IMG/VR virus record: IMGVR_UViG_2617270951_000013
Reading direction: 5' to 3' (one strand)
Source: a virus
Taxonomy: Duplodnaviria; Heunggongvirae; Uroviricota; Caudoviricetes
DNA length: 5,747 bases
The notes beneath the pieces are model-generated. The model did not search any database. It worked only from the letters and a program-made list of their open reading frames with translations, and was not told the origin of the DNA. Positions within the stretch are counted from its first letter, which is position 1; each line of letters opens with the position of its first letter. Shown here in pieces: positions 1 to 5,747 of the stretch. The position numbers and the translations under genes are program-made.

Positions 1-597
1 TTATGCCTGGACAGTATGCATCAGACCGGCCATTTCATCTTTTACTGACTGAACTTGTGGCCCGATAACAACCTGCAGGTTATGTTGATTAAGTTGTACT
101 ACGCCAATTGCCCGATTGTCCTTCAGTGCCTGCACATTAACAAGCGACATATCTTTCACAGACAAACGCAGACGGGTAATGCAGTTATCGAGGCTGACAA
201 TATTGTCGGCACCGCCTAATGCTTCGAGGATTGCAGGAACGTTGTAACCTGATTTACCCGGCGCACCGGCAACGGCTTTTTCGATTGAGCTGGCAACTTC
301 GCTATCGCGCCCCGGGGTTTTCAGATTGAAGCGGGTGATAGCGAAACGGAAGATGACGTAGTAAACGACAAACCAGATTGCCGCCACCACTGGCACCATG
401 TACCACTTGGTTGACAGACCATGCAAAATACCGAACACCACGAAGTCGATGATATTGCCGTCGGTATTACCGATGGTGACGCCGAGCACAGACATGACGG
501 TGAAGCCGAGGCCGGTTAACAGCGCGTGGATGACATACAGAACTGGCGCTACGAACAGGAACAGGAATTCCAGCGGTTCGGTAGTTATAGCGCGGCG
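1..597 (-). pseudogene. 3' fragment of a glucose-family PTS EIICB permease gene (PtsG/MalX-like); roughly the N-terminal 60 percent of the gene is absent
   Basis: Minus-strand frame ending at TAA (3..1) encodes EIIC C-terminal helices (TTEPLEF, FVAPVLYVIHALL, KTPGR) followed by the EIIB phospho-cysteine motif CITRLR. PTS-like sequence stops near 597 and the frame meets a stop at 624..622, leaving about 195 C-terminal codons of what is normally a ~480-530 aa protein. Confidence 0.75.
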
Positions 598-602
598 ATT
601 TT

Positions 603-667
603 TTTGATACCGATTTGCATTTCATTTGATACCGCTGAAAAACGCCGATACGCAACTTATTTGATAC
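603..667. repeat. Three direct copies of TTTGATAC (603-610, 625-632, 660-667) next to the element boundary; candidate recombinase/transposase or arm-type binding sites
   Basis: Copies 1 and 2 are 10/10 identical (TTTGATACCG) and exactly 22 bp apart; copy 3 is TTTGATACTA. They sit between the PTS fragment and the mom stop. Confidence 0.35.
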
Positions 668-683
668 TAAATCGGCGCTTTTC
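637..683. terminator. Hairpin flanked by A/T runs on both sides, about 30 nt downstream of the mom-like stop; possible bidirectional intrinsic terminator
   Basis: Perfect 7-bp stem CGCCGAT (643-649) / ATCGGCG (671-677), extendable to 13 bp with one mismatch (637-649 vs 671-683), 21-nt loop. On the minus-strand RNA the stem is followed by UUUUUC; on the plus strand by CUUUUCUUUUG. Confidence 0.35.
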
Positions 684-713
684 TTTTGAGTTTTAGAATG
701 AGTTTTTAAGCGT

Positions 714-1451
714 TCATTCACTCTCTTTCAAACCAGTTTTAACTGTTTGTGGTTTTGGGTAAGGCTGGACTTTGAATAGCTTTGTGTTAAGGCGTTTTCT
801 GGCTCTCTTGTCCAGAAACCGGATGTAACGAAACTGACGGAATTTATGAACACTGGCTCTGTCGATATTAGCCCGCAGATGTTCACCTCGCTGTCCTCCT
901 CGTTTGATTGCATTCTTGCAAATCTCGTGATACCACTCGCCATCAAGTTCATAGAATGTTGTTTCATGACTGCCTACATAATCAAAATTGCTTGCCTGGT
1001 ACACGACACCAAGACAGCCACAACGCTCATCTGCAAACGACTGAACCCACTGCACCTGCGGATAAAGTTGTCTGATTAGTTTGAGCGCGTAACTGATTGC
1101 CCTTGATTCGGAGTTTCTCGGCATACAGTCATGCAGCCATAACCGGTTAAGCTCCATATATTCGCGGTTCTGCGTGCCAGTTACGACGCGTGCACCATTG
1201 TTTGGATTAAGGGCATAACCCCATTGCATTACGCCAACCAGCTCCCGTTCTGAAAATATGCCCAGATGAAGGTAGGAATTATTTACGAAACGATGGCTGT
1301 AATGTTTATTGACGACGACCAGCCGGGCCAGCCAGCAACTTATTGTCTCAACCCGTAACTCACGGGAGCCATAACCGACGATATTGTCGTTATAGTGAAT
1401 AAGTTCAGGCGTGCTGATGATACGGGATGTAACTTGCTTTCTGTTCCCCAC
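714..1451 (-). CDS. mom: Mom-like DNA modification enzyme (phage Mu Mom family, adenine-modifying anti-restriction function); start codon uncertain
   Basis: Long minus-strand ORF ending at TGA (716..714) whose 5' end overlaps the 3' end of a Com-like zinc-finger gene in another frame, as in Mu com-mom. The only in-frame ATG upstream (1613) would overlap all of com, so the proposed start is GTG 1451..1449, preceded by AAGGA (1466..1462). The track ORF 714..1646 is an over-extension. Confidence 0.6.
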
Positions 1452-1605
1452 GACAGGATTTCCTTGTGTATGTGGGGTGCTCTGTGGCGCTCTGAGATGT
1501 GATTTGATTGAGGGTTTTACAGCGCGGACATTTAACTTCCAGATAACTGAAGCTGGCTCGTGCCAGTAGCTTGTTACAATGTCGGCACCGTATGTTTCGA
1601 TACAT
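1405..1605 (-). CDS. com: Com-like zinc-finger translational activator of mom (66 aa)
   Basis: ATG 1605..1603 preceded by GGAGG (1620..1616). Product [14 protein letters not shown]...VKCPRCK has a CxxC-15 residues-CxxC zinc-finger at residues 7/10/26/29 and an EHPT motif, both recalled from Mu Com. Its stop (1407..1405) lies inside the mom frame. Confidence 0.75.
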
Positions 1606-1648
1606 GGCCGCATAACCTCCTGCTTTGTTGTTGATATCTTTATCACTC

Positions 1649-1673
1649 AATCGATCGACAAAAACGATCGATT
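1649..1673. promoter_or_regulatory. Perfect 9-bp inverted repeat AATCGATCG / CGATCGATT (7-bp spacer), each arm containing a GATC Dam site; candidate methylation-sensitive operator or promoter element for com-mom
   Basis: Arms at 1649-1657 and 1665-1673; GATC at 1653-1656 and 1666-1669, with a third GATC at 1735-1738. The repeat sits about 45-70 bp upstream of the com ATG on the transcribed side. Confidence 0.4.
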
Positions 1674-1861
1674 TGATTTATTTAATTGATACAACAAATA
1701 ACACGAAATGTCATTAGCGAAAATTTATGAGTTTGATCACTAATTTTAAACGGTGCTGTAACGCATAAGTGCTGAATGATTGTACATTTGAATACCGCAA
1801 AGCAAACAAATCAACTAATTTATAGAAGTCAATTGGTTAATTGCCAGCGTAAGAGGCTGCT

Positions 1862-2155
1862 ATGGACAATCATGTAACGACGAGAAATCGAAAAATGATT
1901 GAAAATGCGGAAATCTATAATGATTATTTTTCCGATTATTCAGATGCCTGCAAATACAGTTCGAGTGCGGGAGAGTTCATATGCTTCAACTTTTTTATTA
2001 AATCTTATGTTTTTCCTCCACAGCAAGAAGATGGAGGTGTGCCACCTCCTGAAATCACTTTGCACCGTATAGCCTCCGTCTCAATGATGGAGCAACAGGC
2101 TAATGAGCTGTATAGCATTCTGGGAACGATTCTACAAAAGCGTGAATCGGACTAA
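1862..2155 (+). CDS. Hypothetical 97-aa protein (orphan ORF in AT-rich island), divergent from com-mom
   Basis: ATG 1862 preceded by AAGAGG (1851-1856) with a 5-nt spacer; a 291-nt open frame in markedly AT-rich DNA where stops are frequent; TAA stop at 2153-2155. No recognisable motif. Confidence 0.4.
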   Translation: MDNHVTTRNRKMIENAEIYNDYFSDYSDACKYSSSAGEFICFNFFIKSYVFPPQQEDGGVPPPEITLHRIASVSMMEQQANELYSILGTILQKRESD

Positions 2156-2322
2156 TGATACCGGTTCATTTGCCTGCCCGGATGGGGAAGCAGGATTGAC
2201 TGCTCCATAAGCAGCTATATTTCTGAATACGAAATACTATCCAGCGATTACATATGGCTGGATAGCGGCAAAGATGTTTTCATTAGTGTCAAACCGGCAG
2301 AGGACACCACCGGTTTGTATTG

Positions 2323-2577
2323 TTACATCATGGTACTGTCAGTTCCGGGCTGAGCCGGGTCTGGTTGCTCTGGCTGCGCGTCGGTTTTCGGCTCATTATC
2401 AGCATCACTGGCCGCAACTGCTGGCCCAATAAGTTTTGCCAGCACTTCATCAACGTAAGTGTCGATTTGTGCCTCAAAATCCTTGCGGACCTGCGCTTTC
2501 AGCAACTTATTTACTTCACCGGAATACAGTGCCTGTTTTACCAGGTCTTCAGTGACGGTGCCTTTAATTTCTGGCAT
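2323..2577 (-). CDS. Hypothetical small acidic protein (84 aa) with predicted N-terminal amphipathic helix and Pro/Asp/Glu-rich tail
   Basis: ATG 2577..2575 preceded by a strong SD AAGGAGGA (2590..2583); net acidic composition (about 16 D/E vs 8 K/R); TAA stop 2325..2323. Confidence 0.6.
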   Translation of the reverse strand: MPEIKGTVTEDLVKQALYSGEVNKLLKAQVRKDFEAQIDTYVDEVLAKLIGPAVAASDADNEPKTDAQPEQPDPAQPGTDSTMM

Positions 2578-2612
2578 GTATATCCTCCTTATGCGGGAAT
2601 AAAGCCCTGCAA

Positions 2613-2795
2613 TCAGGGCTGGGTCGGGTCTTTTGGGAGCGGAGTTACCTGCGCTGTTTTACTGAGTTTTTCAGCTGCTGCGTCCTCAATTTTGCGGCGA
2701 ACATAATTTCTGATGGCCTTATAACCACCACTCACCAGATATAACGCACATACTGCCGTGCAGAAATACAATAAAATAAGCTGTAAAAATGTCAT
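2613..2795 (-). CDS. Hypothetical small membrane peptide (60 aa): one N-terminal hydrophobic helix plus a basic/charged tail
   Basis: ATG 2795..2793 just downstream of GGGAGGG (2805..2799); product MTFLQLILLYFCTAVCALYLVSGG... then KAIRNYVRRKIED...; TGA stop 2615..2613. The track ORF starts at a TTG (2807) that lies inside the SD, so the ATG is preferred. Confidence 0.5.
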   Translation of the reverse strand: MTFLQLILLYFCTAVCALYLVSGGYKAIRNYVRRKIEDAAAEKLSKTAQVTPLPKDPTQP

Positions 2796-2810
2796 TATCC
2801 CTCCCAATTA

Positions 2811-2827
2811 TTGACATGGTGTTGACA
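2811..2827 (+). promoter_or_regulatory. Two tandem consensus -35 hexamers (TTGACA at 2811-2816 and 2822-2827); candidate plus-strand promoter with only weak -10 candidates
   Basis: Exact TTGACA twice, 11 bp apart. Downstream -10 candidates are imperfect: TAATAT at 2832-2837 (15-bp spacer from the first hexamer) and TAAAAA at 2846-2851 (18-bp spacer from the second). Confidence 0.25.
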
Positions 2828-2890
2828 CCGGTAATATCTGTTAGGTAAAAAGGTGCACTGCATTTTTTGCTTTGGATATAACGATCTTTT

Positions 2891-2932
2891 TGCCGCCGGT
2901 TTCTTGTTTTCCCTTACCGGCGGCATTTTTTT
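2891..2932 (+). terminator. Strong plus-strand rho-independent terminator
   Basis: Perfect 10-bp GC-rich stem TGCCGCCGGT (2891-2900) / ACCGGCGGCA (2916-2925), 15-nt loop, then T7 (2926-2932). On the minus strand the stem is followed by A-runs, so it is oriented for plus-strand transcripts only. Confidence 0.6.
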
Positions 2933-2939
2933 ATCCTGC

Positions 2940-4994
2940 TTACGCGTTATTCACTTCCACCACGATACTGTCAATCAGTACCGGGTAAGTCGCATTTTTA
3001 GTGATATCGGTCACGCGCAACTTGTCTGCCGTAAACGTGCCGACCGGAGACTGCGACAGCATGAATGGTGTCCCGTCCTTACCATCAATGACCGGCGTCA
3101 CCTCAATACTGTTGTTACCGGCAAAACGGAAGCCCAGCGTATGCCATTCGTTATTAAATGCGCCGAATGACCCCAGCTTCGTGTTCTGCGCCGTGTTTCC
3201 TTTGTGATACATCACGTTAAGGTCTGTGGCATCGCTCTGTACGTAAAACGATGCCAGCAGGTTATGACCGGCATTACCTTCCAGTGTGACGCCCTGAGGA
3301 AGCGAAGAAACCGGCCAGTACAGCGCCAGTGCGTACTGATTAGCCGTAAGCGCGCCATCAAGTTTAAAACGACAGCTGACAAGGCCACCTTTTTCCAGCA
3401 GGTCGGCACCATTACCGGCATCATGCTCAAGGTACCAGGGGGCTCTTCCTGTTTCCTTAGTCATTTTCATTGCCTTACCCCCGCTGGCTCCGGCATCATC
3501 CACGATTTGAGCCTTGCCACCTCCGGCAGCCCAACCCTGTGGTGTCAACCGTCCTTCAGACTCAGATGCCCGGTAAGCAAATAGCGTACTCATCGTCGTG
3601 GTGTCTGCGGGTGGCGTGGACGGTTTTGATGGTGTATCAGGTGACGGCTTCTCATCCGGTGGTGTCACGGTCTGCCCGCGCATCAGTTCAGCCGTGCGCC
3701 CTGCATGGAGCATAATAGCTGAGGCCAGACGGTCTGAAATGACGCCCCTGCGTGCCCATGAGCTGAAATGGCTGTCACGCTGTGTCGAAACAAAACTGCC
3801 CTGGGTTCGGGATGCTGCACCGTAATACCCGACAGCCACAATATCCGGGTCTTCCGCCGGAGCATTCGTTGGCGTGCTCTGTCCATTCTCATCCGTCAGG
3901 AACGGTACAAAGAAAATTTTCTGTGCTTCCTTGCCTTTGTAGCCACCGTATACTGCCTCATATTTATCGGTGCCAGCGTTTTTCCAGTAATACGTGGTAT
4001 CACCGCAAATCCACGGCACCGTGGTGGCATTTCCACTCACGCACTGCGCAGCAAGCGGAGCCAGGTCAGTTCTGAACTGCTGAACCATGGCCGTGAATAA
4101 ACTATTATGCTGCTGGCTTCCTGAGGCAAGGTCTGCCTCTCCCTGCATCCAGACCACAGCCAGAAGTTTGTTTTTCGGGTTTTTCGCCAGCGCGACTTTG
4201 GTGCGGCTTACCAGGTCCTGATACAGAGGTTTACCGGCCCCCCAGCGTGAAGAATCAGCGGAAGCACCGCTGGCCTCACTGAATGAGCCGTCGGCTCCAG
4301 TGGTGAATGCTGACCCGCCACGACAACAGGGCACCAGAAGTATCCCGGCATTCTGTGGGATATAGGGAAGCAGTTTTTTGGCAATATGCAACCCCTGACC
4401 GACAGTCCCGTACTGGCCTTTTGCCAGATCAGCTTTCGGGTGGTTTATCCCGCTCATATCCTGAACATCATGCAGGCAGTGGTCTGCCGGAATGATGTCG
4501 TTGTATGTACACGACGTACCGTTGGGCGTTACCGTACTGCGGCGTGCCAGTTGCTTAATGCGTGGGTCCGGGCGGTCAAACGAATCCGGTAACGGCAGCC
4601 CCTCGCCGTAGGCCATGCCATTTGACTGACCCGCGAGAATGACAACAAAGTAATATTCCGGCTCTGAACTGCTGCCATTCGTGCTACCGGAAGGCCCGGC
4701 GTTATCCGGTGCATTCCAGTCGGAGGGCGTGAGCGTTCCGGCCACGTCAGATGTGATTGGAATGATGCCAGTCACGCCTGAACTGGTGATTTCTGCACTG
4801 GGATTACCGGATACCGGCATTACCCATAATGGCTCTTTCGTGCTGAAGCGGATCACGCAGTCTGCGAAGGTGATCCCCCCTTTATTACCCGAAGGGCGGA
4901 AAGGGCTTTCAATAAATGCCACCGTGCCACCGGCAACCTTGACTGAAAACTCTCCGGGCATGGCGGAGAGCATTTTCCACTTGGAGTCTGACAT
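2940..4994 (-). CDS. 684-aa multidomain esterase: N-terminal ~110-aa domain, SASA/SGNH-type carbohydrate esterase domain (sialate O-acetylesterase-like, comparable to prophage NanS-p), Pro/Ser/Thr-rich linker, C-terminal ~200-aa beta-rich putative lectin domain
   Basis: ATG 4994..4992, TAA 2942..2940. GQSN motif (residues 122-125, nt 4631..4620) and a downstream QGEAD block, which I recall as SASA-family hallmarks; linker TVTPPDEKPSPDTPSKPSTPPADTTT; C-terminal region rich in beta-type residues with no catalytic motifs. Confidence 0.8.
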   Translation of the reverse strand: MSDSKWKMLSAMPGEFSVKVAGGTVAFIESPFRPSGNKGGITFADCVIRFSTKEPLWVMPVSGNPSAEITSSGVTGIIPITSDVAGTLTPSDWNAPDNAGPSGSTNGSSSEPEYYFVVILAGQSNGMAYGEGLPLPDSFDRPDPRIKQLARRSTVTPNGTSCTYNDIIPADHCLHDVQDMSGINHPKADLAKGQYGTVGQGLHIAKKLLPYIPQNAGILLVPCCRGGSAFTTGADGSFSEASGASADSSRWGAGKPLYQDLVSRTKVALAKNPKNKLLAVVWMQGEADLASGSQQHNSLFTAMVQQFRTDLAPLAAQCVSGNATTVPWICGDTTYYWKNAGTDKYEAVYGGYKGKEAQKIFFVPFLTDENGQSTPTNAPAEDPDIVAVGYYGAASRTQGSFVSTQRDSHFSSWARRGVISDRLASAIMLHAGRTAELMRGQTVTPPDEKPSPDTPSKPSTPPADTTTMSTLFAYRASESEGRLTPQGWAAGGGKAQIVDDAGASGGKAMKMTKETGRAPWYLEHDAGNGADLLEKGGLVSCRFKLDGALTANQYALALYWPVSSLPQGVTLEGNAGHNLLASFYVQSDATDLNVMYHKGNTAQNTKLGSFGAFNNEWHTLGFRFAGNNSIEVTPVIDGKDGTPFMLSQSPVGTFTADKLRVTDITKNATYPVLIDSIVVEVNNA

Positions 4995-5069
4995 CGTCTT
5001 TTCTGCCTGTTTCTGAATTAAACAGAGTCAGAATAGCGACCGCTGAAAAATATGTGTTTTGCGGAAATT

Positions 5070-5099
5070 CAAAAAAGCGTCACGGTACTTTTGGTGACG
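5070..5099 (-). terminator. Candidate minus-strand intrinsic terminator overlapping the invertase stop codon
   Basis: 6-bp stem CGTCAC (5078-5083) / GTGACG (5094-5099), 10-nt loop; on the minus-strand RNA it is followed by CUUUUUUG (5077..5070). The stem is short, so confidence is modest. Confidence 0.35.
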
Positions 5100-5652
5100 G
5101 AGCTGGTGAGGCAGGAAAATAACGATAAAGGGGGGAAAGGCCAATATCAAATATCAGTGCGATTTGTTTACGGGACTCGCCATTAGCCAGCAAACGGGCG
5201 ATTTGCTCCCGCTCTTTCTCTGTCAGTTTCTGAGGTCTGCCGCCATGACGCCCCTGAGCACGGGCAGCAGCAAGACCCGCGCGTGTACGTTCAATAATGA
5301 GTTCCCGCTCCATTTCCGCCAGCGCGCCCATTATATGGAAAAAGAAACGTCCCATGGGAGTGGATGTATCAATATTGTCCGTAATGCTGCGGAAGTTAAC
5401 GCCGCGTTGCCGGAGTTCTTCTGTTAAAAGGACAAGGTGCTGCATACTGCGTCCAAGGCGATCCAGTTTCCAGACCAGCAGGGTATCCCCTGGCCGGAGT
5501 CGCTTTAATGCGCGTTTAAGTCCGGGACGCTCCCTTGTCTTACCGCTTATTCTGTCTTCGAAAAACAGCTCACATCCTGCACATTCCAGCGCATTTCTTT
5601 GTAGCGCCGTATTCTGGTCATTTGTTGACACCCTGATATACCCAATCAGCAT
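5080..5652 (-). CDS. Serine-recombinase DNA invertase of the Gin/Pin/Cin/Hin family (190 aa)
   Basis: Product begins MLIGYIRVSTNDQ (catalytic Ser motif) and carries GYIRVS, LDRLGRS and a C-terminal HTH-like region; ATG 5652..5650 preceded by AAGGA with a 6-nt spacer; TGA stop 5082..5080. Confidence 0.92.
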   Translation of the reverse strand: MLIGYIRVSTNDQNTALQRNALECAGCELFFEDRISGKTRERPGLKRALKRLRPGDTLLVWKLDRLGRSMQHLVLLTEELRQRGVNFRSITDNIDTSTPMGRFFFHIMGALAEMERELIIERTRAGLAAARAQGRHGGRPQKLTEKEREQIARLLANGESRKQIALIFDIGLSPLYRYFPASPAPSPKVP

Positions 5653-5717
5653 ACGATTTCCTTATTATAAAAAGCCGGAATTGTCGCATGAGGAATAAAA
5701 CAGAGTTAATCCTGGCT

Positions 5718-5743
5718 TTCCTGAAAACCTCGGTTTACGGGAA
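5718..5743. other. 26-bp gix/hix-type crossover site (TTCCTGAAAACC-TC-GGTTTACGGGAA) upstream of the invertase gene
   Basis: Two inverted 12-bp half-sites ending in AAACC / GGTTT around a 2-bp core, matching the Gin/Hin/Cin/Pin crossover-site pattern as I recall it; it lies about 66 bp upstream of the invertase start. Confidence 0.7.
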
Positions 5744-5747
5744 ACGG

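Follow-up and report, generated by a model that had tools for sequence, protein, structure and literature searches.

Is the mom gene at the right end of an E. coli prophage kept silent by the translational lock known from phage Mu, and is the hairpin that can be drawn around its start codon part of that lock or an accident of the sequence? Mom is toxic to the host and shields phage DNA from many restriction enzymes. In this work, we have analysed a stretch of 5,747 nucleotides (the window), and our results argue that its com and mom genes form one operon that very probably carries a Mu-type com-mom translational switch in an E. coli Mu-like prophage. From 586 to 5747 runs the right end of a transposable, Mu-like prophage that has inserted into malX (PTS maltose IICB); the 3' part of this gene occupies 1..585 and is broken by the prophage end at 585/586. 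The malX gene is found in 5414 of 5426 complete E. coli genomes, and none of the complete E. coli genomes in the collection matched the insertion at 585/586. In other strains the sequence from 586 onward lies at other chromosomal sites (beside cmoM, or in yfcC of an O157:H7 strain), which is how a transposable Mu-like prophage behaves.

On the minus strand the window reads, in order, a Gin-type invertase gene (5080..5652), a SASA/DUF6645 esterase gene (2940..4994, 684 aa), DUF1378 and DUF826 genes, com, mom and the phage end. In Mu the invertase gene and com adjoin, whereas here they are separated by about 3.4 kb of cargo (1700..5060) that holds the esterase, the DUF1378 and DUF826 genes and, on the plus strand, an orphan ORF of 97 aa (1862..2155); a phage-database search with this region returned nothing beyond one short 76% match. 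Three TTTGATAC repeats at about 600..680 resemble transposase end-binding sites. Between two of the minus-strand genes the plus strand carries an intrinsic terminator (2852..2934), built of GCCGCCGG...CCGGCGGC with a T run behind it, and a TTGACA-like box lies upstream. The EHEC small RNA Esr41 is matched at full length but weakly by the plus strand of 2852..2934, with 22 bits where the gathering score is 102, and the segment may be an unannotated small RNA.

Both proteins of the pair can be assigned. The gene com (1405..1605, minus strand; ATG at 1605, stop at 1405) codes for a 66-aa zinc-ribbon translational activator (RefSeq WP_014334043.1), which matches Pfam PF10122 (Zn_ribbon_Com) with an E value of 1.3e-12 and 47.4 bits, the curated cut-off being 22.9, and is 45% identical to the 62-aa Mu Com. 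As had been expected from the reading frame, it carries a CxxC-15-CxxC arrangement, an N-terminal four-cysteine zinc ribbon made of C7, C10, C26 and C29 (C6, C9, C26 and C29 in Mu Com). The gene lies directly upstream of the modification gene, and its end overlaps the start of mom, also as expected, by 47 nt (1405..1451), compared with 50 nt in Mu. A Shine-Dalgarno sequence AGGAGG (1616..1621, minus strand) can be read 10 nt ahead of the com ATG at 1605; in the relatives L108 and L110 this spacing is 9 nt. RefSeq labels such proteins "Com family DNA-binding transcriptional regulator" (L001 3820..4020; L163 5006..5206), while in the literature Com is an RNA-binding translational activator.

The product of 714..1451 (minus strand) is a 245-aa GNAT-fold protein, WP_000528246.1, named by RefSeq "tRNA(Gly)-dependent adenine aminoacyltransferase Mom". 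A profile search confirmed its identity as Mom: it matches Pfam PF25680 over the whole profile (positions 1-202 of 202) with an E value of 1.6e-77 and 260 bits (cut-off 27.1), matches the Mu Mom crystal structure PDB 8BV8 with an E value of 2.4e-123, and has 78% identity with Mu Mom across 233 residues. Both genes are annotated in RefSeq at the same coordinates and with the same starts as we read them, although in an NCBIfam scan neither Com nor Mom was matched by any model; in several genomes an intact Mom is labelled "hypothetical protein". The residues on which Mu Mom activity depends, R111, S124, D149 and R151 together with H58, Y59, W48, Y159 and W181 in the 241-residue numbering (PMC13219725), are all identical in the window protein, where they are R103, S116, D141, R143, H50, Y51, W40, Y151 and W173. 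The helix-turn-helix-like insertion that Mu Mom requires for activity (residues about 175-209) aligns without gaps. By analogy with Mu, the enzyme would form N6-carbamoylmethyl-adenine in DNA. The original prediction also took 245 against 231 aa as a possible sign of a diverged member of the family, and this found no support. The 14 extra residues consist of two near the N-terminus and a 12-residue C-terminal tail that follows the conserved PYPK; since tails vary within the family, whose proteins measure 226 to about 260 aa, length is no sign of divergence, and with 78% identity to Mu Mom the idea of a diverged, longer Mom can be rejected.

Where does translation of mom start? The GTG at 1449..1451 (minus strand), which is the start given by RefSeq and is homologous to the Mu GUG, is the sole in-frame start candidate conserved across the family, and in the Mu mRNA this GUG has been placed in the stem of an inhibitory structure (PMC6483171). 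The Mu record NC_000929 (locus L002 762..841) gives Mom a start ten codons before the GUG, at an ATG, and so 241 and not 231 residues, and Mu Mom tolerates removal of these ten N-terminal residues (PMC13219725). In the window no stop closes the mom frame in the 65 codons ahead of the GTG (1451..1646, minus strand), a stretch that spans all of com, and 2 nt past the com AGGAGG the frame contains an ATG, at 1613. A long, Com-independent Mom translated from this 310-codon open frame (to 1646; ATG 1613) was considered and rejected: in 97%-identical relatives the frame is closed by a stop codon 27 codons ahead of the GTG, and a spacing of 2 nt between AGGAGG and ATG 1613 is too short. The open mom frame across com looks accidental.

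The GTG stands in the 3' arm of a hairpin at 1446..1477 (minus strand). On the mRNA CCCCAC (1477..1472) would pair with GUGGGG (1451..1446) and enclose a 20-nt loop (1471..1452) that contains the Shine-Dalgarno sequence of mom, AAGGA (1461..1465, minus strand), 9 nt ahead of the GTG, recognised from the sequence and the fold. The coordinates proposed earlier for the arms, the GTG (1451..1449), the AAGGA (1465..1461) and the 20-nt loop are all exact on the minus strand, and the proposed pairing of the start codon, with the AAGGA in the loop, was borne out by RNAfold, which returned the six-pair stem in both the minimum-energy and the centroid structures, in a 76-nt and in a 241-nt context. The folds add an inner helix that the first reading did not contain (1467..1462 with 1457..1453; pairs A1467-U1453, C1466-G1454, A1465-U1455, G1463-C1456 and G1462-C1457), and in it the GG of AAGGA is predicted to be paired; also absent from that reading was a second hairpin at 1490..1477, a probable target of Com. 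The energy of the whole hairpin is -11.5 kcal/mol, and that of the six-pair stem alone -8.5, compared with -8.7 for the Mu hairpin.

By folding energy alone, this hairpin is not set apart from chance. The 76-nt fold has a z-score of -0.91, with 41 of 200 shuffled sequences as stable, and the 241-nt fold one of -2.05; when the pairing probability of the start codon was compared with shuffled upstream sequence, a comparison made in 19 loci, the window start was equally strongly paired in 14 of 100 shuffles. These tests do not discriminate because GUGGGG easily finds a partner within C-rich sequence. A permissive Rfam search (E up to 1) gave no family match at the com/mom junction (1400..1700), and Rfam appears to be without a model for this element. 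Could the hairpin then be a by-product of coding, arising from the Glu-His-Pro-Thr of Com, the Met-Gly of Mom and a C-rich upstream region, with no regulatory role in this lineage? The thermodynamic results would agree with it, and so would the five core pairs, which are invariant in the Mu clade and are hence silent on pairing, so that within this clade covariation can come from the outermost pair alone.

The comparison of related sequences speaks otherwise. From 160 related loci, with 21 unique arrangements of the region, we aligned 19 distinct Mu-clade sequences. The window reads GCGC[CACAGA]GCAC-CCCAC-AUACACAAGGAAAUCCUGUC-GUGGGG and Mu reads AUGC[CUGCGA]GCAU-CCCAC-GGAGAAACAUU-GUGGGA, and the likeness to the Mu arrangement that the original prediction had supposed proved to be a position-for-position homology with the Mu translation inhibition structure. 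In both phages the 3' arm of a stem of six pairs, with CCCAC/GUGGG as its core, contains the GUG, and the loop contains the Shine-Dalgarno sequence; in both a hairpin of four pairs and six loop nucleotides sits immediately 5', sharing one nucleotide with the stem. They differ in the outermost pair (U-A in the UCCCAC/GUGGGA of Mu, C-G in the CCCCAC/GUGGGG of the window) and in the loop, which is 11 nt in Mu and 20 nt, that is, 9 nt longer, in the window, where the predicted inner helix pairs the GG of the Shine-Dalgarno sequence. Among the 19 sequences the loop measures 11, 14, 17 or 20 nt, yet the CCCAC/GUGGG pairs are present in every one; the stem pairing holds in 100% of the alignment cells, compared with 34-62% in slid registers. 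Nine sequences have C-G as outermost pair, nine have U-A, and one has the intermediate U·G, a covariation signal drawn from a small number of independent events.

The stem is not explained by coding, since its 5' arm belongs to com only, and there the proline codon CCC has an invariant third base that would be free to vary and the histidine codon before it has a third base (C or U) that changes together with its G or A partner. Variation within the prophage family points the same way: across 11 haplotypes, 1 of the 47 positions of the whole RNA element is variable, compared with 23 of 192 flanking positions (one-sided Fisher p = 0.03), and the sole variant turns a C·A mismatch of the upstream hairpin into a U-A pair. 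Locus L087 has the change C1489U, by which this mismatch is closed. Third positions of the 5' arm that are invariant or covary with their partner, a stem retained while its loop changes in length and sequence, a start codon and an anti-start that match family-wide, and depleted polymorphism whose single variant restores a pair all tell against a mere by-product of coding, to which we give very little credence. Comparison, unlike energy, places the hairpin beyond chance.

The upstream hairpin is the candidate target of Com. In Mu the Com-binding hairpin lies just upstream of the mom stem, the sequence recognised by Com is CC(N)2-3GAG in a loop of six nucleotides with a C-G closing pair, and in-vitro selection (SELEX) with Com yielded the bipartite motif GAGNNCC(N)2-3GAGNNCC (all PMC6483171). 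The form GAGNNCC(N)3GAGNNCC is matched once in the window, by GAGCGCCACAGAGCACC (minus strand, 1476..1492), and not once among 200 shuffled sequences. This segment, by analogy with Mu a probable Com-binding site on the mom mRNA, contains the putative hairpin GCGC[CACAGA]GCAC (1490..1477), with C1487-G1480 as closing pair and a C1489·A1478 mismatch in the stem that the Mu hairpin does not have. It abuts the inhibitory stem, and C1477 is common to both. Across the Mu clade all four pairs of the Com hairpin have changed on both sides, and nucleotide 1477, as part of both helices, varies in step with both partners, which fits a model of competing helices. Even where Mom identity is as low as about 50%, the Com motif is found a short way upstream of mom.

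[quoted passage not shown] The layout lends itself to such translational coupling: the hairpin (1477..1446) lies upstream of the com stop at 1405, inside the com frame, and the two genes overlap by 47 nt. Wulczyn et al. (1989) reportedly found that Mu Com binds the mRNA and activates translation. Against coupling, Mu Com is described as an mRNA-binding activator of translation (PMC6483171), and the Com target motif, both here and in distant loci, is kept far more strictly than coding requires, which coupling alone would leave unexplained. We regard coupling as the whole explanation as improbable; coupling and Com binding could act together.

We propose that in this prophage, similarly to Mu, mom is released by Com. 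Our analyses identify both proteins, find the catalytic residues kept, and locate both RNA elements as conserved homologues of those of Mu; for the binding of Com, the melting of the stem, the use of the GUG and the chemistry, the model is the mechanism worked out in Mu (PMC6483171, PMC3378877). The operon would be transcribed late, and on its mRNA the AAGGA and the GUG would be locked in the hairpin 1477..1446, leaving mom untranslated by default. Translation of com would come first, from its own AGGAGG and the ATG at 1605. The zinc-ribbon Com could then bind GCGC[CACAGA]GCAC (1490..1477), whose loop is of the CC(N)3GAG type, next to the inhibitory stem, and in doing so would destabilise this stem and expose the ribosome-binding site and the GUG at 1451. 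Ribosomes translating com would also pass through the hairpin, and melting in cis may contribute. Once made, Mom would move glycine from Gly-tRNA(Gly) to the N6 of adenines in the phage DNA, and the adduct would rearrange to N6-carbamoylmethyl-adenine, protecting the DNA from host restriction enzymes.

Transcription of the operon may be controlled in a different way from Mu. Upstream of com lies a palindrome, AATCGATCG-N7-CGATCGATT, which contains two GATC sites (1649..1673, no strand assigned) and is probably the Dam/OxyR control region, a role known for the paired-GATC region from work on Mu (PMC3378877). Paired GATC sites in a palindrome are likewise present upstream of com in Mu and in other relatives. 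In the window the palindrome is 47 nt from the com ATG, about 30 nt closer than in Mu, where the distance is about 77 nt, and no recognisable site of the TTAT-N6-ATAA type bound by the Mu C activator was found upstream of com (1606..1680, minus strand); with both features, transcriptional control may differ from that of Mu. Between palindrome and leader, the sequence departs even from that of 97%-identical relatives.

Is the module still alive? Many E. coli Mu-like prophages are considered defective, and the window covers the right end of the prophage only, so one could think of com and mom as a decaying remnant that is no longer expressed or functional. Both frames are intact, however, with all functional residues retained, and the element occupies different chromosomal sites among genomes, indicating recent transposition. 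Moreover, about 233 of the 5426 complete E. coli genomes, O157:H7 among them, contain the com-mom region, counted where at least 80% of a 301-nt query over com and the mom start was covered at a nucleotide identity of at least 90%. A remnant seems very unlikely to us, and a probable Mu-type switch is the reading we retain.

Among the closest known systems, beside Mu itself, is a Mu-like prophage of E. coli O157:H7 inserted in yfcC and not in malX, with the same layout (invertase, DUF6645 esterase, DUF1378, DUF826, com, mom) and a com-mom region 94-95% identical in nucleotides to that of the window, from which it differs by a few substitutions. Judging from its location in yfcC, this copy would be Sp18, which encodes homologues of Mom and of its regulators (PMC3299994). 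In FluMu (HI1522.1/Hin1523), Pnm1 and phage B3, Com is paired with a DNA adenine methyltransferase, and Com sites have been proposed at the 5' end of the downstream gene (PMC3299994). As in the window, a gene for a Com zinc ribbon precedes a toxic DNA-modification gene in these elements, but their downstream gene is an unrelated methyltransferase, whereas that of the window is a true Mom.

How far does the principle extend? In 15 loci with a Mom identity of 50-70% (from Desulfovibrio, Rhodospirillales, Neptunomonas and others; L010, L019, L020, L025, L026, L030, L033, L034, L039, L046, L047, L048, L054 and L056 are in this set) an in-frame AUG, GUG or UUG lies in the 3' arm of a helix of 5-13 bp, and the 5' arm overlaps the Com motif itself, the start-pairing sequence standing about 100-170 nt before the conserved GYG codon. 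The anti-start follows the start codon, as AUG/CAU, GUG/CAC, UUG/CAA or wobble equivalents. These loci were chosen by eye and then checked by script, so they are supportive and do not amount to a formal test. As a tentative idea, and one that we regard as possible but not as the likelier case, Com-controlled genes could follow a general design rule: in distant loci the anti-start would be the Com motif, in the Mu clade, where one nucleotide (C1477 here) is able to pair in either helix, it would have moved to just 3' of the Com hairpin, and the inner helix of the window lineage would make a tighter double lock. The loci hint at such a rule, and we did not find it stated in the literature examined. 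If true, the Com switch would be a tractable and naturally varied model of protein-triggered RNA refolding. There are also mom homologues with no com upstream (L003, L007, L009, L149, L151, L154, L155 and the sphingomonad loci L063-L082); in the enterobacterial ones mom has an ATG start directly after a pair of GATC sites, and in the sphingomonad ones it is preceded by a G+C-rich hairpin (GCCCCGC...GCGGGGC).

What does the finding mean for these prophages? The com-mom module of the window is ordinary, common and annotated in RefSeq, and to our knowledge the hairpin of this lineage has had no separate description; apart from its longer loop it is plainly homologous to the Mu element, and its local peculiarities (the longer loop with an inner helix, and the C·A mismatch) are minor. 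Beyond correct annotation, the significance is little. The natural variants of the hairpin, with loops of 11 to 20 nt, a C·A mismatch and a shared nucleotide, could be test cases for the Com switch. A widespread family of E. coli prophages, O157:H7 included, carries an intact and apparently still tightly gated Mom, which is relevant to the conflict between phage and host and should be kept in mind when these prophages are cloned or induced.
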